Below are positions 3,875 through 62,230 of a DNA stretch of 64,000 nucleotides, piece after piece. Made by a program: the position numbers and the translations under genes. Source of the stretch: Patescibacteria group bacterium (GTDB taxonomy: Bacteria > Patescibacteriota > Patescibacteriia > PEXW01); contig JBAZBR010000003.1 of assembly GCA_041671325.1 (NCBI GenBank), forward strand, positions 68,506 to 132,505, read 5' to 3'. The notes below the pieces were generated by a model. It had not been told where the DNA came from, did no database searches, and was given only the letters and a program-made list of their open reading frames with translations. Numbering within the stretch: position 1 is the stretch's first letter; each line of letters starts with the position of its first letter.

Positions 3875-4134
3875 GGGATTCTCTGTTTTGCCAAATTTAT
3901 TTCTCAAGCGGGCTGATTCACAAATTAGCCCGTTTTAGTTATGTTTAAATTTGTTTTAATAAGTTATCTAATCACTAAATACCCTTGCAAGTGAACAAAG
4001 TCGCGTTTTAATTTTAAATTTGGTCAATCTTTTCAATTGAATCTAATCGGTTATGAAAAGTGCACGATTTGACAGATGTATTAAATGAATTTAGAGTCAA
4101 GCTAAACAAGTGATCTTTTAAAAAAGGAATATAT

Positions 4135-10203: not shown

Positions 10204-11661
10204 TTATTCTTTTTTAGATTTTTTCTTTTTTCCATCCTTTTCGGTTTTGTTTGCATCAGGTTTTTTTACTTTTTCATCAGTATCAGTTTTTTCCGCTGTA
10301 GTTTTGTCTTCTGTTTTTTCTTCCACGACTTCAGATTTTTCTTCTTGAACAACTTCTTCTACTTTGGTATCTTCAGTCTTTTCTTCAGTTTTCACTTCGG
10401 CCTTAACTTCAGTATCTTCGACTTTTGCTTCAACGCCTTGGGCTTTAATACCTTCACCCACAATATCAATGCGCCAGCCAGTTAATTTGGCTGCCAGCCT
10501 CACATTTTGGCCAGATTTGCCGATAGCCAAAGATAATTGGTCTTCTTTTACTTCCACCCTGGCGGTGTGCTGGGCTTCATCAAGATTGATGGAAATGACT
10601 TTGGCCGGGGAAAGCGCATTGCCAATAAAAGCAATCTGGTCTTCTGACCATTCAATAATATCAATTTTTTCACCGCCCAATTCATTAATGACGGTTTGCA
10701 CGCGGCTGCCTCTTTGGCCCACGCAAGACCCAATCGGGTCGATATTCGGCTGGAGCGAAACCACGGCGATTTTAGAGCGGAAACCAGCTTCCCTGGCCAC
10801 TGCTTTTATTTCCACGGTTTTGTTTTGGATTTCCGGCACTTCAGTGGCGAATAATTTCCTGACCATTTCCGGGTGGGTGCGGGAAACGATGATTTCCGGG
10901 CCTTTGGTAGTGGCATTCACGGACACAATATAAACCTTGATCCTGGCGCCAGCCCGGTATTGTTCGGTTGGCAGTTGTTCGGCTGGGGGCATGATGGCCA
11001 TAGTGTGGCCAATATCAAACATGACTAATTTGCCTTCTTGCCTTTGGACATTAGCATTAATCATTTCGCCTTCTTTATCTTTGTATTCCTTAAAGACAAT
11101 TTCCCGTTCAGCCTCGCGTAATTGCTGGATAATAACCTGTTTGGCGGTTTGGGCAGCCATGCGGCCATAGGCGGCTGGCGGAAAAAGTTCGGTTTTGATT
11201 ACGTCTTCGATTTTCGCGCCTTTTTTCAGGACCTTGGCATCGGTTAAAGAAATTTCAGTTTTAGGGTCAAACCTTTCAAAAATTACCTCTGGTTTTTCTT
11301 CAGTTTCGGTTTTTTCTTCCATGGCTTCATGGGCTTCTTCTTCAGTCCTGACCACGGTTTCCCCGGCTGCGACTTTGGCTTCCCTTTCAGCTTCCTCGGC
11401 TTCCATTTTGGCTTTGCGTTCGGCGTCATAGGCTTCGGTCTTGGCTTTTTTTTCATCGTCAACCACGGTTTTCACGTCAAAAACCCGGGAAGAACCATCT
11501 TCCAAGCTAAAATCAACCTTGATATTTTGATCTTTACTGCCGAAGTCTTTGCGATAAGCCACGGCTAAAGCCGATTCCACGGTATGCAAAACCGATTCCA
11601 TGGGGATGCGTTTTTCATCAGCAATCTGCTTCATGGCCTGGATAATTGGATTTTCTGGCAT
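10204..11661 (-). CDS. nusA: transcription termination/antitermination factor NusA with a K/E-rich C-terminal tail
   Basis: NusA N-terminal domain, an S1 domain, and KH domains (GSCVGQRGSRVQ). The last 60 or so residues are low-complexity and rich in K, E and T. Confidence 0.85.
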   Translation of the reverse strand: MPENPIIQAMKQIADEKRIPMESVLHTVESALAVAYRKDFGSKDQNIKVDFSLEDGSSRVFDVKTVVDDEKKAKTEAYDAERKAKMEAEEAEREAKVAAGETVVRTEEEAHEAMEEKTETEEKPEVIFERFDPKTEISLTDAKVLKKGAKIEDVIKTELFPPAAYGRMAAQTAKQVIIQQLREAEREIVFKEYKDKEGEMINANVQRQEGKLVMFDIGHTMAIMPPAEQLPTEQYRAGARIKVYIVSVNATTKGPEIIVSRTHPEMVRKLFATEVPEIQNKTVEIKAVAREAGFRSKIAVVSLQPNIDPIGSCVGQRGSRVQTVINELGGEKIDIIEWSEDQIAFIGNALSPAKVISINLDEAQHTARVEVKEDQLSLAIGKSGQNVRLAAKLTGWRIDIVGEGIKAQGVEAKVEDTEVKAEVKTEEKTEDTKVEEVVQEEKSEVVEEKTEDKTTAEKTDTDEKVKKPDANKTEKDGKKKKSKKE

Positions 11662-11738
11662 GTGTTTATTGATTAAAAAAGAAAACAGTCTATTTTGACT
11701 GCCTGGTACAAGTATACAGGAGTGGTAGGAGTTGTCAA

Positions 11739-11841
11739 CCCCGCACCACTTTCTATAATAATCATTTATATAATTTCAATATATTCAGCAAAATAACAAC
11801 TTTAATAATTTGTCTATATTTGATTAGAAAGTGGTGCGGGG
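11739..11841. repeat. inverted-repeat element family 'CCCGCACCACTTTC', copy 1
   Basis: Perfect 15-bp terminal inverted repeats, CCCCGCACCACTTTC and GAAAGTGGTGCGGGG, flank about 73 nt of AT-rich sequence. It lies in the divergent nusA / ORF11923 intergenic region. Confidence 0.6.
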
Positions 11842-11922
11842 TCAACCCTAGATTGACAATTAACTTAAGGCCTGCTAAGATTTTGGGAAATAAAAATAAA
11901 GTTAGATTTTTTCAGATTGTGA

Positions 11923-17295: not shown

Positions 17296-17400
17296 CTAGA
17301 AAATATTAATCTGTCATTCTGAACCCTGAGCGAGTGTAGCGAGTCGAAGGGGAAGAATCTCCCGTTCTTACGGGATACGAAATAATGATTATTCTGTTTT
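17296..17400. repeat. partial copy of the GTCATYCTGA palindromic repeat family
   Basis: TGTCATTCTGAACCCTGAGCGAGTGTAGCGAGTCGAAGG matches the left end of the copies at 55767, 61567, 62085 and 63606. The right end is degenerate. Confidence 0.4.
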
Positions 17401-23773: not shown

Positions 23774-24715
23774 ATGGCTAATTCCCTTGCTAAACTCTTA
23801 AACGACTTTTTGACTTATTTGGAGATTGAAAAAAATGTCTCGCCTTTGACTGTGAAGAATTACGATTTTTACTTGAGGCGCTTCATGAGCTGGGGCAACC
23901 TAAAAGATCCTCAAGACATCACCTCAGAAAAGGTCAGGCAATACCGTTTGTATTTAAATCGTCTACTCAATCAGCAAAAAGAAGCCTTAAAAGCTTCCAC
24001 TCGGAATTACCACTTGATTGCTCTGCGTTCTTTTTTGAAGTATTTATCCAAACGGGATGTTAAAGCTTTGGCTCCGGAAAAGGTGGAACTAGCTAAGCAG
24101 CCTGAACGGCAGGTAAATTTTTTAGAAGGAGCAGATTTGGAAAGATTTTTAGAAGCGCCTTTAAAAACCAATGAACATAATTTGGTTAAGTTCCGGGACA
24201 AGGCAATTTTGGAAATGCTTTTTTCCACGGGCTTGCGGGTTTCCGAATTGGCGGGTTTAAAAAAAGAAAACGTGAATTTGGAAAAAGAGGAATTCACGGT
24301 CCGAGGCAAGGGTGGAAAATTGCGGGTAGTTTTTCTTTCCCATACGTCCAGGCATTTTTTGGGCGAATATTTGAATAATCGGAATGACCAAGAGCCCTGG
24401 ATGTTTTTGCGGCATGACCGGGCCATTAAAAGATCGGCCGAACATTTAAAACCTTTGACTCCCAGGTCAATCCAAAGGATTGTCCAATATTATGCCAAAG
24501 CCGCGGGCATAACCAAAAGGGTCACCCCGCATACCTTGCGCCATTCTTATGCCACGGATTTATTAATCAATGGCGCAGACATCCGTTCAGTCCAATCCAT
24601 GTTGGGCCACGCTTCCATAACAACCACGCAAATTTACACGCACGTCACCAATCAGCAGCTAAGGGAAGTTTATAAGGCTTTCCATGCCAGAAGAAGAAAA
24701 GACAAAGAGGATTGA
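23774..24715 (+). CDS. tyrosine site-specific recombinase (XerC/XerD-like, or island integrase)
   Basis: The C-terminal catalytic box HTLRHSYATDLL...LGHASITTTQIYTHV contains the R..H..R..Y residues. The gene ends at TGA and lies directly upstream of a tRNA cluster. Confidence 0.8.
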   Translation: MANSLAKLLNDFLTYLEIEKNVSPLTVKNYDFYLRRFMSWGNLKDPQDITSEKVRQYRLYLNRLLNQQKEALKASTRNYHLIALRSFLKYLSKRDVKALAPEKVELAKQPERQVNFLEGADLERFLEAPLKTNEHNLVKFRDKAILEMLFSTGLRVSELAGLKKENVNLEKEEFTVRGKGGKLRVVFLSHTSRHFLGEYLNNRNDQEPWMFLRHDRAIKRSAEHLKPLTPRSIQRIVQYYAKAAGITKRVTPHTLRHSYATDLLINGADIRSVQSMLGHASITTTQIYTHVTNQQLREVYKAFHARRRKDKED

Positions 24716-24836: not shown

Positions 24837-24965
24837 AGAGAATTATTAACAATTTTCCCCTTACAGGTTCTCCGCCACCGAAAGATTTTAGAGGCGGATC
24901 CGCCTCTTGCACCAAAGGCGCATCTGCCTCTGGCACGAGGCGGAGATTCCTGCTGAGGGCACCAG
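24837..24965 (+). repeat. palindrome-rich spacer ending in a tRNA-3'-end-like GGGCACCA
   Basis: Contains the perfect 16-bp palindrome GAGGCGGATCCGCCTC, and CTCCGCC...GGCGGAG long-range pairing. It ends in ...GCTGAGGGCACCA directly before tRNA-Val. Confidence 0.3.
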
Positions 24966-25042
<77 letters not shown>

Positions 25043-25230
25043 CGCGCGCACGCGCCTTTCACCTTTCGTGAACGCGCAAGCTTGTTCACTACAGGTTCCA
25101 GGCGCAGCTCGCTTGCCCCGTTTTATCTATAGATAAAACGGGGACCCCGGTTGGATTCTGCAAGCGTACCGCTTACCCCATCCGCCTTTGGCGAGATGGG
25201 GACCCCAAATGAATAAAAATGTTATCATAA
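25043..25230 (+). repeat. tRNA-trailer structured element (Val copy; divergent member of the trailer family)
   Basis: Starts immediately after CCA with CGCGCGCACGCGCCTTTCACC. It contains perfect hairpins CCCCGTTTTATCTATAGATAAAACGGGG and CCCCATC..GATGGGG, each followed by GGGGACCCC, and CGTACCGCTTACCCC resembling the GTGCCGCTnTCCCC punctuation of the other copies. Confidence 0.4.
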
Positions 25231-25234
25231 ATTT

Positions 25235-25507
25235 ATGAAATATTTCGTCGGCATCATTTTAATAGGCATAGGCTTTGTAATCATCTGGAAGTCAGATTGG
25301 CTTATGAACAATCTGGGCCGGATTGATTGGGCCGAACAGCATTTGGGTATGGATGGCGGGACGCGCTTGTTGTATAAGTTAATTGGTGTAGTTTTGATAA
25401 TCGGAGCTTTTCTTTTAATGGGCGGTGGCTTGTCTAAAGGTGCGAAGAAAGTTTTCACTCCCAGTGGTCCTACTGATATAGAACAGCCGCAAAGTGAAGG
25501 ATTATAG
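25235..25507 (+). CDS. small membrane protein (hypothetical)
   Basis: 90 aa with 2 TM helices. No clear ribosome-binding site. Confidence 0.3.
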   Translation: MKYFVGIILIGIGFVIIWKSDWLMNNLGRIDWAEQHLGMDGGTRLLYKLIGVVLIIGAFLLMGGGLSKGAKKVFTPSGPTDIEQPQSEGL

Positions 25508-25528
25508 AAATTGAAAAATAATTTTTAT

Positions 25529-25604
25529 GGGCCGTTAGCTTAGCTGGTAGAGCGCCGCGTTTGCAACGCGGAGGTCGCCGGTTCGAATCCGGCACGGTCC
25601 ACCA
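25529..25604 (+). tRNA. tRNA-Ala(TGC)
   Basis: Hand fold. Acceptor GGGCCGT/ACGGTCC with the G3:U70 alanine identity pair. Anticodon loop TTTGCAA, CCA encoded. Confidence 0.8.
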
Positions 25605-25850
25605 CGCGTCATTGCGAGCGACGGGTTTCGTGTGGCAACATTTGTTGCCCCACTGCACCCTCTGCTCGCATGCCGCTTTCCCCACGCGCCAGTTCCGCCG
25701 CGTGGGGCCCCCAGGAAGATTTTCGTTCGTGTGCCGCTTTTCCTCACGAATGCGTGCTCCTCCCCCTCGACTCCGCTCGGGGTCGTGCGATCCACATTCG
25801 TGAGGTCAGGTTTCACAAACGTGCCGTTTTCCCAAAAAATATATGCAAAT
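25605..25850 (+). repeat. tRNA-trailer structured element, copy U1
   Basis: CGCGTCATTGCGAGCGACGGGTTTCGTGTG, then hairpin GGCAACATTTGTTGCC, then CCACTGCACCCTCTG-CTCGCATGCCGCTTTCCCC. Further modules end in GTGTGCCGCTTTTCC and GTGCCGTTTTCCC. About 60% GC against a background near 40%. Confidence 0.55.
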
Positions 25851-26346: not shown

Positions 26347-26519
26347 CTGGCTATTTCCAAAGGCCTGGACGAATTTTCGTTCAGGCCTTTATTTATAAAT
26401 TTAACTTTTATTATTGACCAATTCCTGGTAATTTATTAGTATTCGAAAGCTTTAGTGATATGTTTGAATATCTAATGCGTGATGGGTGTCAATAGAGAAT
26501 AAAATAATTGATATTCCCT

Positions 26520-26546
26520 GCGGTGGCCATGGTGTAGTGGTAACAC
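26520..26546 (+). pseudogene. tRNA-His 5' fragment (positions -1 to about 25)
   Basis: GCGGTGGCCATGGTGTAGTGGTAACAC matches the first 26 nt of the intact tRNA-His 150 nt downstream, then diverges. Confidence 0.6.
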
Positions 26547-26673: not shown

Positions 26674-26748
26674 GGTGGCCATGGTGTAGTGGTAACACAG
26701 AGGCTTGTGGAGCCTTTATCTCGGGTTCGATCCCCGATGGCCACCCCC
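26674..26748 (+). tRNA. tRNA-His(GTG) with genomically encoded G-1
   Basis: Hand fold. G-1 opposite discriminator C73, acceptor GTGGCCA/TGGCCAC, anticodon loop TTGTGGA, T-loop TTCGATC, CCA encoded. Confidence 0.75.
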
Positions 26749-27135
26749 ATGCACAGCAACCAAAACATATGGTTCGGGTTGGGAATAACAGCAGATCCTC
26801 GAGAACAAAATAAAAGTAAAAAACGAGACCCCGCCCAAGTGGCGGGGCCGATGGCCACCCCAAGGTGGTTGCCACCGCAGGGAATATCAGAGGCTTGCCT
26901 GTCCCGTACTTGAGCCTCGCGAATAGTACGGGATGGAGCCCCCGAACCACCTTGGGTTCGGGGCATGCTTTATCTCGGGTTCTCCGCCACAAAAAAAATA
27001 ATGCGGATCCCCCGCCTACCGAAGCCTCGTGCGGCGGGCAGGCGCCGGATGGCGGGAGATCCCCCAGCCTCACCCGACGAGCGTGCGAGTCAAGGCGGGC
27101 GATGGCCACCCCAAGGTGGTATTCTATGATATAGA
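26749..27135 (+). repeat. GC-rich mosaic of tRNA-His fragments
   Basis: The 3'-end copy CCGATGGCCACCCCAAGGTGG occurs at about 26848 and about 27099. An internal copy at 26888..26982, CAGAGGCTTG-[70-nt insert]-CTTTATCTCGGGTTC, reproduces the anticodon-to-T-arm region with an insertion. About 60% GC. The track ORFs here are judged spurious. Confidence 0.5.
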
Positions 27136-27576
27136 CAAATTATCAAATTAAATGTGCAATTATGAACAATATATTTGTTTGGATTATATTATGTGCGGTA
27201 AGTCTAATATTAGGAATATTAAGTTATGTTGCCGCATATAGAAGGGGAGTTGGAGACATAAAGAATCACCCCAAGATTTTCAGGTTTTTTGAAATATATC
27301 GCCATTTTGTCGGTTACTTTTTTTCAGCAGTTATTGGTTATTATTTTATTAAAGTAAGATGGCCCTACATACATCAAACGGCAGTACTTTCTCTCGGCGA
27401 TTTTATTTTAGGAATTGCATTCCTTTTTGGCGTTTTAGGCTGGTGGCCGTATTTAATCAAAAATATTACTGAGGGAGTGGAAGCTATTATTAATAAACGG
27501 TTAGGAAAATAATTGATTTATTACCTGAATAATAATTTTAAAATTATGTGCGAGTCAAGGCGGGCGATGGCCACCC
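27083..27576 (+). mobile_element. small cassette bounded by a perfect 30-bp direct repeat derived from the tRNA-His 3' end
   Basis: GTGCGAGTCAAGGCGGGCGATGGCCACCCC occurs at 27083..27112 and 27547..27576 and flanks ORF 27162..27512. Confidence 0.5.
27162..27512 (+). CDS. small membrane protein (cassette cargo)
   Basis: 116 aa with 3 TM helices, very AT-rich, flanked by the 30-bp direct repeats. Confidence 0.4.
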   Translation: MNNIFVWIILCAVSLILGILSYVAAYRRGVGDIKNHPKIFRFFEIYRHFVGYFFSAVIGYYFIKVRWPYIHQTAVLSLGDFILGIAFLFGVLGWWPYLIKNITEGVEAIINKRLGK

Positions 27577-27678
27577 CCGCTTACCTCTTAACTGGTACTA
27601 AACCAGCTTTTTCCCATTTTTATTAAAAAGAAAATCCCGCTAATCTGGAAGATTAACGGGATTGAACCTGCAATATTG

Positions 27679-38376: not shown

Positions 38377-39480
38377 ATGCAAAATAAGTATATTATTAAT
38401 TATTTTATAAGTCCACATAATTTGAGCTATACTGAGGTTATGCAGAAAAAAGGAGGATTTACCCAGCACCACTTTTCGTTAAAACGCTATAATCATAGCA
38501 AAAGACTTTTATTGGAAAGTGGTGCTGGGTTTACCTTAATTGAGGCTTTGATAACCATTTCAATTTTTGGCATTGCCGCAGTGGTTTTGGGTTCAGCTTT
38601 GGTGAATATCCGCCTTAATAGGGCTAATCGCTCGGATGCTGCCTCGGGGTTTTTGGCGCAGTCCGAAATTGAAGCAGTCAGATCCCTGCCCTTTGGAGAA
38701 ATAACCAACCAGACTAACGGGTCTTTTCGGAATGTGCTTTTTCAGCAAGGAACTTGGGCAGTTGCGAGTCATGCTTTTGCACCTTCGGGGAATCAAGTTA
38801 TTGAATTAACAGGAAGTGGGACAGGCGATATAAGCGGTCTGGCAATTGTACCAGCCGGGAGCGGTATTACTGATGGCAGTATTGTGGCTTATATGAATGT
38901 CAGGAATGAAAGTCCCAGTAATTGGCAGGCGGGTTTTTTGTTCCGGGCCAAAGACCGAGAAAATTCCTATCGGGTTTGGTATTCCAGCAGTCAAATTAAA
39001 GTTCAAAAAGTCGTGGCTGGTACAGTAACGGATATTTATTCTCGTAACCAAGCTTTTTTAAAAAATACCTGGTATAAGCTTGAAATCGTTTTAGCCACCA
39101 GCAGTATAAACGTAAAGCTGAATGATATCCCCTTAACCGGTATGCCAATTACCGATTTAACTTTTACAAAAGGGGCGGTTGCGCTTTTTGGGTCTAATGG
39201 CGCCAGTTTGGATGTCGATTCATTAAGCGTGGTCCAAGGCGCCAATACCCTTAGTTGGAATTTTGATTCTGGTGAAACCCTTGGCAATTTACCAATTGGT
39301 TGGGAAAGGTTTGGGGTTTATGATTTGCCCCAAGGTACGGCAGTCTTAAGTATTACCGATGCGGAAGTTGGTTTTACGGATATTAAGAAAATTACAGTTC
39401 AGGTTGGTTATACAATCGACAGCGGCACCCGCACCCAAACCATAGAAACTTTAATTTCCCAAGGAGGGATAGCCCAATGA
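38377..39480 (+). CDS. type IV pilin-like protein (prepilin-type N-terminus) with a large C-terminal domain
   Basis: Prepilin cleavage/methylation motif G|FTLIEALITISIFGIAA. The true start may be the internal Met at about 38437. Confidence 0.6.
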   Translation: MQNKYIINYFISPHNLSYTEVMQKKGGFTQHHFSLKRYNHSKRLLLESGAGFTLIEALITISIFGIAAVVLGSALVNIRLNRANRSDAASGFLAQSEIEAVRSLPFGEITNQTNGSFRNVLFQQGTWAVASHAFAPSGNQVIELTGSGTGDISGLAIVPAGSGITDGSIVAYMNVRNESPSNWQAGFLFRAKDRENSYRVWYSSSQIKVQKVVAGTVTDIYSRNQAFLKNTWYKLEIVLATSSINVKLNDIPLTGMPITDLTFTKGAVALFGSNGASLDVDSLSVVQGANTLSWNFDSGETLGNLPIGWERFGVYDLPQGTAVLSITDAEVGFTDIKKITVQVGYTIDSGTRTQTIETLISQGGIAQ

Positions 39481-47296: not shown

Positions 47297-47319
47297 AACT
47301 TGAGTATAGCAGATGTTGA

Positions 47320-47423
47320 TCCCGCACCACTTTCCATAGCAAGGTTGGGTAATAGATTAAATATTCATCTAGGAGAAATATCTTTCGTCTTGACCTTAGA
47401 TATTGTTGGAAAGTGGTGCGGGA
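47320..47423. repeat. inverted-repeat element family 'CCCGCACCACTTTC', copy 2
   Basis: Perfect 17-bp terminal inverted repeat TCCCGCACCACTTTCCA / TGGAAAGTGGTGCGGGA flanking 70 nt. It lies in the divergent region upstream of pilT. Confidence 0.6.
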
Positions 47424-47644
47424 TTGACGAAAAGCAAAAAACGTGATAGAATATAGATATAAAATAAAAACAAATATGAAAAAAACCACCTCCATGTTTC
47501 CTAATGGTCAAATCAGTTTGGTCATGCTTGGACAAACTATGTATTATTCCAAATCCTCTACTGGCCTGGGCAAGCGTTTGACCCAGCAAGTTTTTAGCAT
47601 TTTTAAACCTGCACCTAAGCGTCATATCTTAAAATTTTCCAATT

Positions 47645-48782: not shown

Positions 48783-48858
48783 GCGCCCATAGCTCAATGG
48801 ATAGAGTACATGGCTTCGGACCATGGGGTTGGGGGTTCGACTCCCTCTGGGCGCACCA
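48783..48858 (+). tRNA. tRNA-Arg(TCG)
   Basis: Hand fold. Acceptor GCGCCCA/TGGGCGC, anticodon loop CTTCGGA, T-loop TTCGACT, CCA encoded. Confidence 0.75.
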
Positions 48859-49090
48859 CGCGTCATCACGTGCGACGGGTTTCGTGTGGCAACATTTGTT
48901 GCCCCACTGCACCCTTTGCACGCGTGCCGCTCTCCGTGCGAAGCCTCGCTTAACCACAGAAACGCGTACTCCTTCGCTTTACTCAGTCCGTTCCTCGTTT
49001 CTGTGGCGTTTCGAGTTTTTTCCGTGCGTTCCTCATTTATGAGGTAGGTTCCGTTCGCGTGCCGCTCTCCCCAAATTTGTTTTCAACAAA
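48859..49090 (+). repeat. tRNA-trailer structured element, copy U2
   Basis: CGCGTCATCACGTGCGACGGGTTTCGTGTG, then hairpin GGCAACATTTGTTGCC, then CCACTGCACCCTTTGCACGCGTGCCGCTCTCC. A second module ends CGCGTGCCGCTCTCCCC and is followed by the hairpin CCCCAAATTTGTT..AACAAATTTGGG. Confidence 0.55.
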
Positions 49091-49171
49091 TTTGGGACTA
49101 GGTTGTGCCATAAACGGTTACAGACTATTGCTTTTAATTCAGTTTATTTGTAAATTTAAGTCATTCAATTT

Positions 49172-49247
49172 GGGAGCATAGCTTAGCTGGTAGAGCAGAC
49201 GCCTCTTAAGCGTACGGTCGGGGGTTCGAATCCCTCTGCTCCCACCA
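49172..49247 (+). tRNA. tRNA-Lys(CTT)
   Basis: Hand fold. Acceptor GGGAGCA/TGCTCCC, anticodon loop CTCTTAA, T-loop TTCGAAT, CCA encoded. Confidence 0.7.
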
Positions 49248-49606
49248 ACCTACGTTTCGCAGACGGAACTTCGGTTGGCAGGCCAAAAACCTACAATTAT
49301 TAGTTTATTGCTATTTTTATGTGGTTTGTATATGGATTGTCATGCAAAGACGACTATCTTTATATCGGATCAACCAATAGTTTAAAACGTCGTGTGTTTG
49401 AACACGATGCTGGCAAATGTTTAACTTCAAAAAACAGATTGCCCTGTAAATTAAAATTTTATATTGCTGTTAACACAGAAAAAACCGCTAGAAATTTGGA
49501 GAAATATTTAAAAACTGGTTCAGGTAAGGCCATTCTAAAAAAACGAATTTTAACTGACGAAGCTTCGTCGAAAGACGAAGCGTAGTCAGCCCCTCTGCTC
49601 CCACCA
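49248..49606 (+). mobile_element. about 359-bp insertion carrying a GIY-YIG nuclease gene, integrated exactly after the tRNA-Lys CCA with a 16-bp duplication of the tRNA 3' end
   Basis: CCCTCTGCTCCCACCA occurs at 49232..49247 (the tRNA 3' end) and again at 49591..49606. The second copy is immediately followed by the canonical trailer start CGCGTCATCGCGAGCGG. Confidence 0.6.
49319..49585 (+). CDS. GIY-YIG nuclease, YhbQ/UPF0213-like
   Basis: WFVYGLSCKDDYLYIGSTNSLKRRVFEHDAGK(C) matches WF[LV]Y.[LI]...D..LY[TI]G.T..[DS]..RR...H..GKG of E. coli YhbQ-type GIY-YIG proteins. 88 aa. Confidence 0.8.
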   Translation: MWFVYGLSCKDDYLYIGSTNSLKRRVFEHDAGKCLTSKNRLPCKLKFYIAVNTEKTARNLEKYLKTGSGKAILKKRILTDEASSKDEA

Positions 49607-49790
49607 CGCGTCATCGCGAGCGGCGGGTTTCGTGTGCCCCGCCCTGGCGGGACCCACTGCACCCTTTGTTCGCGTGCCGCTATCCCCAATTTTTAATAAA
49701 AAATTGGGGACCCCACGAGACATTAGCTTTCACAGGTGTGCCGCTTTTCCCACGCGCCAGTTCCGTCGCGTGGGGCTCCTGAATATACAA
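49607..49790 (+). repeat. tRNA-trailer structured element, copy U3 (displaced from tRNA-Lys by the GIY-YIG insertion)
   Basis: CGCGTCATCGCGAGCGGCGGGTTTCGTGTG, then a different hairpin CCCCGCCCTGGCGGG at the same position as GGCAACATTTGTTGCC in U1 and U2, then CCACTGCACCCTTTGTTCGCGTGCCGCTATCCCC. Further modules are GTGTGCCGCTTTTCCC and ACGCGCCAGTTCCGTCGCGTGGGGC, which are shared with U1. Confidence 0.55.
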
Positions 49791-55624: not shown

Positions 55625-55766
55625 AAAAATTGTAGGATTTTAATTTCATAAGGGGTGTAACAAACTTCGACAAATTTATTGAAAAATTTAAGTTAGTTAG
55701 CAAAAATTAATCTACCATAATTGAATTGGGGGAGTAAAGGGAGGGGCGTCATAAACAAGCCACTTT

Positions 55767-55868
55767 TGTCATTTCGAGCGAAGCGAAGCGAAGTCGAGAA
55801 ATCTCGTTTTATTCAACTTAGATTCCTCGGTTCACCCCACCAAATGGTGTGGCTCACTCGGAATGACA
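55767..55868. repeat. GTCATYCTGA palindromic element (MITE-like), copy
   Basis: Terminal inverted repeats TGTCATTTCGAGCGAAGCGAAG and CTCACTCGGAATGACA. About 102 nt, upstream of clpP. Confidence 0.55.
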
Positions 55869-55875
55869 AGAAAGT

Positions 55876-60556: not shown

Positions 60557-60663
60557 GCCCCGCACCACTTTTCATCAAAATCCAGAACCTAAAAGCAGGC
60601 TTTTTAGTCGGTATTAATATCTAACTAATTTACTTAACCTTTTTATGAAAAGTGGTGCGGGGC
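60557..60663. repeat. inverted-repeat element family 'CCCGCACCACTTTC', copy 3
   Basis: Perfect 19-bp terminal inverted repeat GCCCCGCACCACTTTTCAT / ATGAAAAGTGGTGCGGGGC flanking 69 nt, upstream of nrnA. Confidence 0.6.
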
Positions 60664-61558: not shown

Positions 61559-61566
61559 AAATGTTT

Positions 61567-61671
61567 TGTCATCCTGACGACCTGACCATGGACAGGGAGG
61601 AAGGATCTTTATAAGGATTGAATATTTATGAAGATTCTTCGTCCTCGATCAGGCTCGGACTCAGAATGACA
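61567..61671. repeat. GTCATYCTGA palindromic element (MITE-like), copy
   Basis: TTGTCATCCTGACGACCTGACC...GTCCTCGATCAGGCTCGGACTCAGAATGACAG. It starts 9 nt upstream of the rbfA start codon. Confidence 0.6.
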
Positions 61672-61686
61672 GAAAAAGTTAGTTCT

Positions 61687-62076
61687 TTAGACGCCTTTCA
61701 CCTTGATCCAACTAAGTTTCTGCCATTTGATTAGTTCCTCGGAATAAGGCAAGCCTTTGGGGATGGGGTTAAGGCAAAGTATTTTAATATGTTTATATAA
61801 GGTCAAGTTTAAGCCAATGGCAAAGGCAATTTCCGCAAAAACGCTGGGGCCAATATAATTCGAAACCCCTGATTTTTTAAGATTTAAAACAAACACCTCA
61901 TCAGTCTTAGTAATAGCCTTATAAAAATTTGAGTGTAGTTTTTTGTAATTCAAGCCGACTTTGTTGTTAAATTTTGGATATGCCAAAACTTTATAACCTT
62001 TATTCTCTAAATTTTCTTTCCAGTCAATAGCCTCTTTATAAAAAGACGTACTAGCCGATATAACTACTTTTTTCAT
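61687..62076 (-). CDS. nucleoside 2-deoxyribosyltransferase-like (Nuc_deoxyrib_tr/YtoQ-like) protein
   Basis: N-terminal KKVVISASTSFY (like KIYLAGP.F) and C-terminal SVFAEIAFAIG (like GTAFEIGYA) with a conserved Glu. 129 aa. Flanked by two copies of the MITE-like element. Confidence 0.35.
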   Translation of the reverse strand: MKKVVISASTSFYKEAIDWKENLENKGYKVLAYPKFNNKVGLNYKKLHSNFYKAITKTDEVFVLNLKKSGVSNYIGPSVFAEIAFAIGLNLTLYKHIKILCLNPIPKGLPYSEELIKWQKLSWIKVKGV

Positions 62077-62084
62077 ATGATTAT

Positions 62085-62224
62085 TGTCATCCTGACGACC
62101 TGCCTATGAGCAGGGAGGAAGGATCTTAATAAGGCTAAAATTTATAAAGATTCTCCCGCCTACCTTCGCCAGACGAAGTTCGGCGGGCAGGTCGTCCTCG
62201 ATCAGACTCGGATTCAGAATGACA
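62085..62224. repeat. GTCATYCTGA palindromic element (MITE-like), longer variant
   Basis: Same termini as the 61567 copy, in the same orientation, with an internal 30-nt insertion. It lies between the infB stop and the start of the 62076 gene. Confidence 0.6.
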
Positions 62225-62230
62225 GGGATG

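Follow-up and report, generated by a model that had tools for sequence, protein, structure and literature searches.

Among the palindromic repeats described in bacteria, the CGTC-tagged repetitive extragenic palindromic (REP) sequences are characterized by a terminal CGTC tag (with TGTC and CCTC variants), stems starting with complementary AT and a short CCA-like tail. The canonical elements span 20-40 bp, with a stem of 8-9 bp and a loop of 4-5 nt, and are dispersed in many copies per genome, and the class includes the dRS3/NTS repeats of Neisseria and RPE-4 and RPE-6 of Rickettsia (Di Nocera et al. 2013, PMC3733652). The NTS, a longer dRS3 form (CGTCATTCCCGCGMAVGCGGGAATCYRG; CGTCATTCCCGCG...GGGAATC), is the binding site of SsnA, a single-domain GIY-YIG nuclease of 94 aa that binds the hairpin only as single-stranded DNA (ssDNA) and cuts a few nucleotides upstream, and SsnA homologues across bacteria are flanked by related hairpins called "SRM" (Chenal et al. 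2025, PMC11893778). Simple arithmetic on the oligonucleotide lengths given in PMC11893778 places the SsnA cut about 3 nt 5′ of the tag. Here, four GC-rich elements (U0-U3, at 25043, 25605, 48859 and 49607) are described from a 64-kb stretch of DNA, analyzed as a whole and called the window, whose neighbouring proteins place it in Patescibacteria, near Kerfeldbacteria. The U elements constitute one family of modular hairpin arrays at tRNA 3′ ends. The reading favoured here, held with evenly balanced confidence, is that they are a lineage-restricted REP-type family of GC-rich, imperfectly palindromic DNA repeats which reside at tRNA 3′ flanks and spread between them.

A repeat family at tRNA 3′ ends

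ARAGORN identified six tRNA genes in the window, all on the plus strand and with an encoded CCA, at the places given by an earlier annotation of this DNA (the first-pass annotation). According to that annotation, four of them were followed, from the first base after the CCA (CCA+1), by elements with common sequence blocks. This was verified for tRNA-Val (U0), tRNA-Ala (U1) and tRNA-Arg(TCG) (U2), where GC-rich sequence starts at the base after the CCA, but not for U3, which lies directly 3′ of a 16-nt duplicate of the tRNA-Lys 3′ end and not of the gene; the intact tRNA-Lys is located 359 nt upstream, with a 343-nt GIY-YIG insert between them. All four elements lie on the tRNA strand and begin at CCA+1 (in U3, that of the duplicate), and none is found directly after the own CCA of tRNA-Arg(TCT), tRNA-His and the intact tRNA-Lys. 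In U1-U3, an imperfect palindrome of 72-75 nt, called here the rod, precedes hairpin modules with the punctuation GTGCCGCTnTCCC. The components are the following:

24966-25042, plus strand: tRNA-Val(TAC), CCA encoded (ARAGORN; Rfam tRNA, 75 bits)
25043-25120, plus strand: U0 rod and punctuation (GCTCGCTTGCCCC), recovered by the covariance model and with the architecture kept in the fold
25116-25207, plus strand: U0 downstream modules, with CCCC-hairpin-GGGGACCCC at 25116-25143 and ACCGCTTACCCC plus a hairpin at 25176-25201
25529-25604, plus strand: tRNA-Ala(TGC), CCA encoded (ARAGORN, Rfam)
25605-25684, plus strand: U1 rod, composed of CGCGTCAT, stem a, GGGT/ACCC, a 3x3 loop TTC/TGC, GTG/CAC and the apical GGCAACATTTGTTGCC, with punctuation ATGCCGCTTTCCCC
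25680-25835, plus strand: U1 downstream modules, with hairpin A at 25680-25707, GTGCCGCTTTTCC at 25731, a long hairpin B at 25742-25805 and GTGCCGTTTTCCC at 25821
48783-48858, plus strand: tRNA-Arg(TCG), CCA encoded (ARAGORN, Rfam)
48859-48938, plus strand: U2 rod and punctuation GTGCCGCTCTCCG (fold, covariance model)
48936-49097, plus strand: U2 downstream modules, with GTGCGAAGCCTCGCTTAACC...ACGCGTACTCC, GTGCCGCTCTCCCC at 49059 and a terminal AT-rich hairpin at 49070-49096
49172-49247, plus strand: tRNA-Lys(CTT), intact (ARAGORN, Rfam)
49591-49606, plus strand: 16-nt direct repeat of the tRNA-Lys 3′ end (CCCTCTGCTCCCACCA), with U3 from the next base
49607-49688, plus strand: U3 rod with apical hairpin CCCGCCCTGGCGGG and punctuation GTGCCGCTATCCCC (fold, covariance model)
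49684-49781, plus strand: U3 downstream modules, with an AT-rich CCCC...GGGG hairpin at 49684-49709, GTGTGCCGCTTTTCC at 49736-49750 and hairpin A at 49749-49774

The blocks CGGGTTTCGTGTG (25622, 48876 and 49624) and CCACTGCACCCT (25650, 48904 and 49654) each occur exactly three times in the 64 kb, which bears out the sharing claimed for U1-U3, and the punctuation GTGCCGCTNTYCC, with one mismatch allowed, was matched nine times in the window against 0.44 expected, seven of these matches being within U1-U3. Over 80-82 nt, the rods are 88% (U1/U2), 79% (U1/U3) and 76% (U2/U3) identical, and U0 is a divergent member, 54-59% identical to the other three. A covariance model built from U1-U3 and searched over the window scored U1 at 105.7, U2 at 102.5, U3 at 92.9 and U0 at 31.4 bits and revealed no plus-strand copy beyond U0-U3, its other strong matches (35-37 bits) being the same loci on the opposite strand. 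As had been reported, the elements are GC-rich (54-62% versus 43.5% for the window), and the apical hairpin GGCAACATTTGTTGCC is common to U1 and U2, with the unrelated CCCGCCCTGGCGGG at the equivalent place in U3. The downstream modules had been described as shuffled between copies and closed by a punctuation motif; the punctuation is confirmed by its excess, but the copies differ by the presence or absence of modules and not by true reordering. For example, in U1 as in U3 the ACGCGCCAGTTCCGYCGCGTGGGG hairpin comes immediately after a punctuation motif, and the U3 copy of hairpin A is 93% identical to that of U1.

The same two tRNA loci were compared in contigs of related genomes (labelled L0xx; L041 and L044 were used for comparisons of the GIY-YIG cassette). 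L035 encodes a PilT 93% identical to that of the window and carries identical tRNA-Arg(TCG) and tRNA-Lys genes, and no U-type rod was found anywhere in this contig by the covariance model with filters off; its tRNA-Arg/tRNA-Lys spacer, which in the window holds U2, is AT-rich and unalignable. No U-type rod was found either after tRNA-Val or tRNA-Ala in L019 and L020, or after tRNA-His in L019. The search of relatives with a covariance model, as proposed by the first-pass annotation, recovered divergent copies at CCA+1 in two related genomes: one in L029/L030 (4685-4765, 25.9 bits), starting at the CCA of a tRNA-Gly 3′ remnant, and one in L031 (12170-12254, 18 bits), starting at the CCA of an old tRNA-Val remnant. 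The second modules of both are homologous to the GTGCGAAGCCTCGCTTAACC...ACGCGTACTCC module of U2, which they match as GAAGCCTCGCTT(T/A)ACC...CGCGTRCTC. The family is patchy among close relatives and attached to different tRNAs in different genomes and, since divergent homologues exist in relatives, it is older than this genome. This patchiness and change of tRNA partner make a modular mobile element targeting tRNA 3′ ends the better supported of the two explanations offered at first, the other being small RNAs released from tRNA trailers by RNase Z.

The searches against known families gave the following results. At the gathering threshold of Rfam only the six tRNAs of the window pass, and no match at E<=1 with lax filters overlapped U0-U3, in agreement with the initial statement that the elements belong to no described RNA family; what that statement did not capture is the resemblance of the rod foot to CGTC-tagged REPs and to NTS-SRM (PMC3733652, PMC11893778). 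The exact U core was matched 16 times in 185,579 species genomes (GTDB), always in GC-rich genomes outside the Candidate Phyla Radiation, against a rough chance estimate of ~20, these matches being judged without inspection of their flanks. It was also matched at 6 loci in JGI metagenomes, none with a tRNA, which were taken as chance, and had no match in IMG/VR, and BLAST of U1 against plasmids and phages gave no match.

Pairing symmetry and the trailer RNA alternative

Each U copy folds into a long hairpin from 1 nt past the CCA, with RNA z-scores of -5.8, -3.4, -2.6 and -3.1. From the outside in, the rod presents an outer GCG/CGC helix, a stem of 7-9 bp, a 4-bp helix (GGGU/ACCC in U1-U3 and ACCU/AGGU in U0), a symmetric 3x3 loop (UUC/UGC, with UAC in U0), a GUG/CAC helix and the variable apical hairpin; the punctuation GCCGCTnTCCCC comes next, and then one to three hairpin modules, each closed by that same motif. 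Inside U0-U3, no hairpin followed by a T-run, as in a terminator, was found on the plus strand, and a terminator role for these elements was rejected for the lack of T runs; the pilT terminator just upstream is canonical.

Covariation was assessed in a six-sequence alignment taken from the cmsearch output and fitted to the structure of the model, as MAFFT misaligned U0. In this alignment, which amounts to about four independent lineages given that U1-U3 are near-duplicates, 125 of the 135 pair cells hold standard pairs and 19 of the 23 pairs show double-sided change; when the 3′ partners were slid by 1-2 columns as a control, 28-54% were paired. Each rod contains 0-3 G-U pairs among ~26, the pairing being almost purely Watson-Crick, and the minus strand folds equally well or better, both as RNA and as DNA (minus versus plus RNA fold energies of -40.9 versus -38.8 kcal/mol for U1 and of -42.1 versus -31.0 kcal/mol for L031). 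The comparison of plus- and minus-strand folds of the rods revealed no RNA-specific strand bias. A structure selected only in the transcript normally gathers G-U pairs that are broken on the other strand, which a DNA palindrome does not. With rare G-U pairs and folds of equal quality on the two strands, the covariation is no pointer to RNA: it is evidence that the hairpin is important, but not that its importance lies in an RNA. The compensatory variation in which the first-pass annotation saw a functional RNA is real, since the stems do covary, but its symmetry is that given by a DNA palindrome.

The most serious alternative, itself unlikely, is that the U elements are functional RNA structures of the pre-tRNA 3′ trailer, kept by selection on the transcript, either as a signal for processing or stability (such as a double-stranded rod that RNase III would cut, or a structure placing an endonuclease right behind the encoded CCA) or as a trailer-derived small RNA. 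Small RNAs of this kind, such as E. coli 3′ETS-leuZ, start right after a tRNA 3′ end and are freed by tRNA processing; those known are short, unstructured and conserved with their tRNA operon. The U elements share with them the position directly after a tRNA 3′ end, but are long palindromes and patchy among strains. The constant tRNA strand and the exact CCA+1 start would be natural in a trailer, but the distribution of the elements speaks against it: the identical tRNA-Arg(TCG) and tRNA-Lys of L035 have no U-type rod, the orthologous tRNA-Val and tRNA-Ala of relatives have no U element, and tRNA-Arg(TCT), tRNA-His and the intact tRNA-Lys of the window are likewise without one at their own CCA. 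The folds are stable and include conserved motifs that stay unpaired (the UUC/UGC loop and the GCCGCUnUCCCC tail), and the pairing survives many double-sided changes, all of which is also consistent with an RNA, but there is no strand asymmetry, G-U pairs are few and Rfam holds no relative. Moreover, because no canonical terminator follows the U-bearing tRNAs, another 3′ signal is needed, and other structures of this sort exist in the clade, namely the long GCCTTCGC...GCGAAGGC hairpins from CCA+1 at other tRNAs (L033 and L038) and the 22-bp leader/trailer helix of tRNA-His; the homologues of L029 and L031, for their part, follow dead tRNA fragments. If the rods were RNA processing signals after all, they would represent an unrecognized route of 3′ maturation for CCA-encoding tRNAs in the setting of minimal RNase sets.

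Likeness to tagged palindromes and a possible mode of spread

The REP-type reading takes its support from the foot of the rod, which in U1 reads CG-CGTC-AT-[stem]...[stem]-AT-GCC. The 5′ tag is CGCGTCAT in U1-U3, which count as one observation since they are recent copies; U0 has CGCGCGCA, with no tag, and L029 and L031 have GCTC. The base pairs of the foot are AT...AT in U1 and AT...GT in U2 and U3, and the GCC tail is followed by a conserved GCTnTCCCC. Like the CGTC-tagged REPs, the U elements are oriented palindromes, with a 5′ CGTC tag in U1-U3, AT-started stems and a short C-rich 3′ tail that may be comparable, and they are also intergenic, located downstream of genes, clustered and modular, with stems that vary while the structure is kept. 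They differ in their placement, as the four copies seen in 64 kb are all at tRNA 3′ ends; PMC3733652 reports no tRNA-end placement, the word tRNA being used there just to name enzymes (tRNA synthetase and pseudouridine synthase) whose genes have REP insertions.

The resemblance extends to the Ssn/SRM system, with CGTCAT immediately 5′ of the hairpin, a directional element, a gene for an 88-aa single-domain GIY-YIG protein 21 nt upstream of U3 and a repeat-gene-repeat layout elsewhere in the window (61566-62225). The spacing of the putative catalytic residues Y5, Y15 and E61 of that protein, picked by eye from the translation, resembles that of Y6, Y17 and E64 of SsnA, which are the mutants listed in PMC11893778; the words tRNA and Patescibacteria are absent from the main text of that study. 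GTCAT-led motifs are enriched in the window (13 versus 2.2 expected), and a looser scan of the window for GTCAT plus a palindrome gave 30 matches versus 18 expected, judged not separated from a Markov-shuffle maximum of 29.

Away from the tRNAs, TGTCAT-tagged palindromes similar to CGTC-REPs are found at 17313 (+), 18302 (-), 53596 (-), 55766-55869, 61566-61672 and 62084-62225. At the last two sites, two near-identical composites of ~107 nt (TTGTCATCCTGACG...CAGAATGACAG) bracket a minus-strand open reading frame (ORF) of 129 aa and no assigned family (61687-62076), an insertion in the space that separates rbfA from infB, and a homologous copy of the composite lies after the old tRNA-Val of L019 (11654-11752). 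Three of these palindromes (55766-55869, 61566-61672 and 62084-62225), of the form TGTCAT...ATGACA, have the appearance of miniature inverted-repeat transposable elements (MITEs) and form a set distinct from U; in the U arrays, no MITE features (terminal inverted repeats, target-site duplication) were found.

REP sequences and bacterial interspersed mosaic elements (BIMEs) are mobilized by REP-associated tyrosine transposases (RAYTs), which are IS200/IS605-like Y1 transposases. This system is similar to U in having hairpin repeats that act as ssDNA, mosaic clusters, a tag at the hairpin foot and insertion beside a short target, but the U rods have no GTAG at either foot. No RAYT- or transposase-like ORF was found next to any U copy, the window as a whole not having been scanned exhaustively.

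As for the mode of spread, the U hairpins might act as ssDNA during replication, repair or transformation. By analogy with SsnA, a hairpin-specific nuclease would then nick a few nucleotides 5′ of the CGTCAT tag, that is, at the CCA|CG boundary between tRNA and trailer, a candidate being a single-domain GIY-YIG protein like the one whose gene ends 21 nt before U3. The CACCA|CGCGTCAT junction is common to the copies, and repair or gene conversion across it could transfer U to other tRNA ends; such copying would make the CCA boundary a recombination break point. The elements themselves would be passively co-transcribed as tRNA trailers and trimmed off during 3′ maturation.

U most resembles the CGTC-tagged class and is a variant resembling it, not a member. 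It was not filed as a member because the SRM pattern HGTCWYN(0-2)YYVSBRHN(0-5)WNVSBRGN(0-2)RNCYNB gave 0 matches on both strands of the window, because the rods are two to three times too long (72-75 nt, with ~26 pairs and internal loops, outside the REP size rule), because the critical C after the palindrome is replaced by TGCC and because U0 has no CGTC tag. The absence of SRM matches, the rod size, the untagged U0, the GCTC of the copies in relatives and a 3′ tail of (A/G)TGCC in place of ATC/CCA weigh against the REP-type reading itself, and other points do so too. Only four copies exist in 64 kb, all at tRNAs, where a selfish repeat would be expected elsewhere as well, and the strict CCA+1 start in tRNA orientation fits a selected pre-tRNA processing signal equally. 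The GIY-YIG gene adjoins only one of the four copies (U3) and is part of a cassette whose end motif (ACCTAC...GGCAGGCCAA) is not that of U, so that it may be unrelated to U; its protein is at most a putative member of the Ssn family (cd10448). Were the REP-type reading correct, REP-type palindromic repeats would reach the Candidate Phyla Radiation, where they would be composite and unusually long, tRNA 3′ ends would be a specific home of such repeats that PMC3733652 and PMC11893778 do not mention, and the small single-domain GIY-YIG nucleases would be linked to the turnover of tRNA genes.

Mosaic tRNA loci and the GIY-YIG cassette

The most interesting part is the context, in which tRNA ends appear as landing sites for hairpin repeats and GIY-YIG cassettes, among tRNA genes that are nested or in fragments. 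In this clade, the tRNA loci are recombination mosaics of old tRNA fragments, nested replacement genes and GIY-YIG cassettes, within a gene order (Xer, tRNA-Arg(TCT), tRNA-Val, a gene for a 90-aa membrane protein, tRNA-Ala) that is conserved in relatives. In the window, the region 3′ of tRNA-Arg(TCT) contains the final 20 nt of another allele of that gene (24945-24964), with 95% identity to the copy that is intact in L019; the T-loop of this remnant is split by a 74-nt double-hairpin insert TCCGCC...GGCGGAG (24871-24944), and the remnant directly abuts tRNA-Val. A homologous insert (TCCGCCAC...) occupies the T-loop of an old tRNA-His at 26983-27057. The live tRNA-His (26674-26749) is nested in this older, fragmented gene, whose 5′ part lies at 26522-26546, with a promoter-like site upstream (26414-26442), and whose 3′ pieces, at 26968-26982 and 27100-27113, are interrupted by GC-rich hairpins. 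Further copies of the tRNA-His 3′ end occur at 26848-26862 and 27565-27578, and the new gene is enclosed by a perfect helix of 22 bp that comprises leader, acceptor stem and trailer (26661-26682/26737-26758). A perfect direct repeat of 30 nt (27083-27112/27548-27577) brackets a 116-aa membrane-protein ORF (27162-27512). Since tRNA-His 3′ ends serve as punctuation in the array at 26848-27578, the U punctuation GTGCCGCTnTCCCCA might, by analogy, be a worn tRNA 3′ end, a tentative idea for which no matching tRNA was available.

Similar arrangements were verified in the relatives (L019, 11194-11650 and 12051-12252; L020, 11020-11243 and 12541-12700; L031, 10980-11425 and 11911-12170; L029, 4100-4690), in which the new nested tRNA genes have complementary leader and trailer. 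In L019, a new tRNA-Ala is nested at anticodon-loop position 35/36 of the old one, between the inverted repeats CGATAACTTT/AAAGTTATCG, and a new tRNA-Val is followed by a GIY-YIG gene and then by the old tRNA-Val from its D-loop onward. In L020 and L029, 5′ and 3′ halves of old tRNA-Arg genes surround the live one. In L031, an old tRNA-Val carries GC-rich hairpin inserts in its D-, anticodon and T-loops, and a GIY-YIG ORF begins right after the anticodon of an old tRNA-Arg. The end of U0 is GGGGACCCCAAATG, and GGGGACCCCAAATGCA in L020 and its variant GGGTCCCAAAATGCA in L031 precede tRNA-Val, following in L020 also the end of an old tRNA-Arg. This arrangement, as if tRNA-Val had been inserted precisely at the junction of a CCA with its trailer, fits the mode of spread proposed above.

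The insert between tRNA-Lys and U3 is a GIY-YIG cassette with the following parts:

49248-49590, plus strand: GIY-YIG cassette between tRNA-Lys and U3 (Pfam GIY-YIG, 2.1e-11)
49248-49286, plus strand: left-end motif ACCTACG...CTTCGGTTGGCAGGCCAA
49319-49585, plus strand: ORF of 88 aa, single-domain GIY-YIG, ending 21 nt before U3
49554-49590, plus strand: right end CTGACGAAGC...GCGTAGTCAGC, the cassette ends being conserved in L041 and L044

From the tRNA CCA onward, it consists of ACCTACG...CTTCGGTTGGCAGGCCAA, AT-rich DNA, the ORF and TGACGAAGC...GCGTAGTCAG, after which the tRNA 3′ end is repeated. Cassettes with equal ends were found at tRNA-Ser in the Patescibacteria contig L041 (1640-2040) and at tRNA-Ser(GCT) in the Melioribacteraceae genome L044 (4834-5345), with proteins 72% and 62% identical to that of the window, respectively; across the cassettes, the ORF has 83-88 aa and the tRNA 3′-end repeat 16-20 nt. 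Tandem GGCAGGCCAACCTAC units are present downstream of the L044 cassette, and L035 keeps only the left-end motif (2645-2685). The position of the cassette between tRNA-Lys and U3 shows that U3 adjoined tRNA-Lys before the cassette arrived. The window protein is only distantly like the UPF0213 structures 1ZG2 (E 0.0035) and 1YWL (E 0.014), the left end of the cassette had no match in viral sequences, and no description of a tRNA-end-specific GIY-YIG cassette was found in the searchable literature. The nearest analogue of the cassette, though not of U, is SegB of phage T4, a homing endonuclease of the free-standing GIY-YIG type that is encoded in a cluster of tRNA genes (PMC2330249), as in both cases a GIY-YIG gene lies among tRNA genes and its spread carries flanking tRNA sequence. 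SegB differs in having a DNA-binding domain and in cutting double-stranded DNA, whereas the cassette protein is a bare catalytic domain of 88 aa and the cassette is flanked by direct repeats of the tRNA 3′ end.

In L041 (300-2040), the 2 kb around tRNA-Ser(TGA) and tRNA-Ser(GCT) hold two called GIY-YIG genes (598-840 and 1760-2011) and a third GIY-YIG-like frame, recognized by eye (~957-1200), which continues directly into tRNA-Ser(GCT). In addition to the live tRNA-Ser(GCT), its 3′ end is present three more times in this region, and a 5′ fragment of it once.

A broader and more tentative proposal is that the CCA boundary in Patescibacteria and at least one Ignavibacteriota-like genome serves as a dedicated landing and breakage site for ssDNA hairpin elements: the U rods would be recognized by a site-specific ssDNA nuclease cutting at the 3′ edge of the tRNA gene, bare single-domain GIY-YIG genes would move as cassettes into the same site and duplicate the tRNA end, and the resulting breaks would drive the wholesale replacement of tRNA genes, with new copies nested in old ones and GC-rich hairpins scattered through the old. 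If this were true, the widespread but functionally obscure Ssn-like GIY-YIG proteins would gain a concrete natural target and a role.

An improbable explanation of the same loci is that the U arrays are scars of integrative elements (phages, plasmids or islands) which entered by a tyrosine recombinase at tRNA 3′ ends and were later mostly deleted, leaving the arms that flank the att sites. Direct repeats of tRNA 3′ ends (16 nt for tRNA-Lys and, three times, 13-15 nt for tRNA-His) are compatible with such entries, but those at tRNA-Lys and tRNA-His bracket inserts other than U, and no tRNA-end repeat flanks U0, U1 or U2. The old tRNA fragments have break points at the anticodon loop and T-loop, which are reportedly the classical sublocations of integrase crossover. 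Fragments of tRNA genes produced by integrating elements are in themselves well documented (PMC9897764, PMC3293823), but here four different tRNAs carry one element, whereas att sites are tRNA-specific, and U has no similarity to phages or plasmids. A tyrosine recombinase gene is indeed present at 23774-24715, just upstream of the first tRNA cluster and the only recombinase gene near the U elements, but it corresponds to the housekeeping Xer of the clade and not to the integrase of an element. Its candidacy as an element integrase was rejected, as hundreds of genomes encode this Xer at 60-91% identity and in a conserved gene order.

It is hardly credible that the repeats are an assembly artefact, with mis-joined or collapsed repeats in a metagenome contig, since, although the assemblies of relatives often break 150-400 bp after pilT, at the repeat-rich tRNA locus, the copies are only 76-88% identical to one another and each has flanks of its own, independent assemblies of other samples contain divergent homologues, and the GIY-YIG and PilT proteins of the window are recorded from NCBI, JGI, Logan and ENA sources.

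In practical terms, the U elements would break the assemblies of relatives just after pilT, create tRNA fragments open to miscalling as genes and make the tRNA loci of these reduced genomes fast-evolving mosaics. Independent assemblies of close relatives (L033, L034 and L036-L039) end 145-364 bp past the pilT stop, at the tRNA-Arg(TCG) locus; in L033, the tRNA at this contig end is on the opposite strand, and in L038-L040 only CACCA and the GCCTTCGC...GCGAAGGC trailer hairpin are left. This suggests repeat-induced assembly breaks and rapid rearrangement at the site.

Another palindromic feature consists of inverted pairs (A/G)CCCCGCACCACTTT ... AAAGTGGTGCGGGG(T/C), 22-70 nt apart around AT-rich DNA and usually joined to TTGAC. 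They are found in the window at 11738-11842, 38461-38530, 47319-47424 and 60557-60663, in L020 at 10948-10990 and in L029 at 4040-4075, and may represent a conserved operator or palindrome close to promoters. The pair in L020 has TTGACG-17 nt-TAGAAT after its right arm, at a site upstream of the tRNA cluster.

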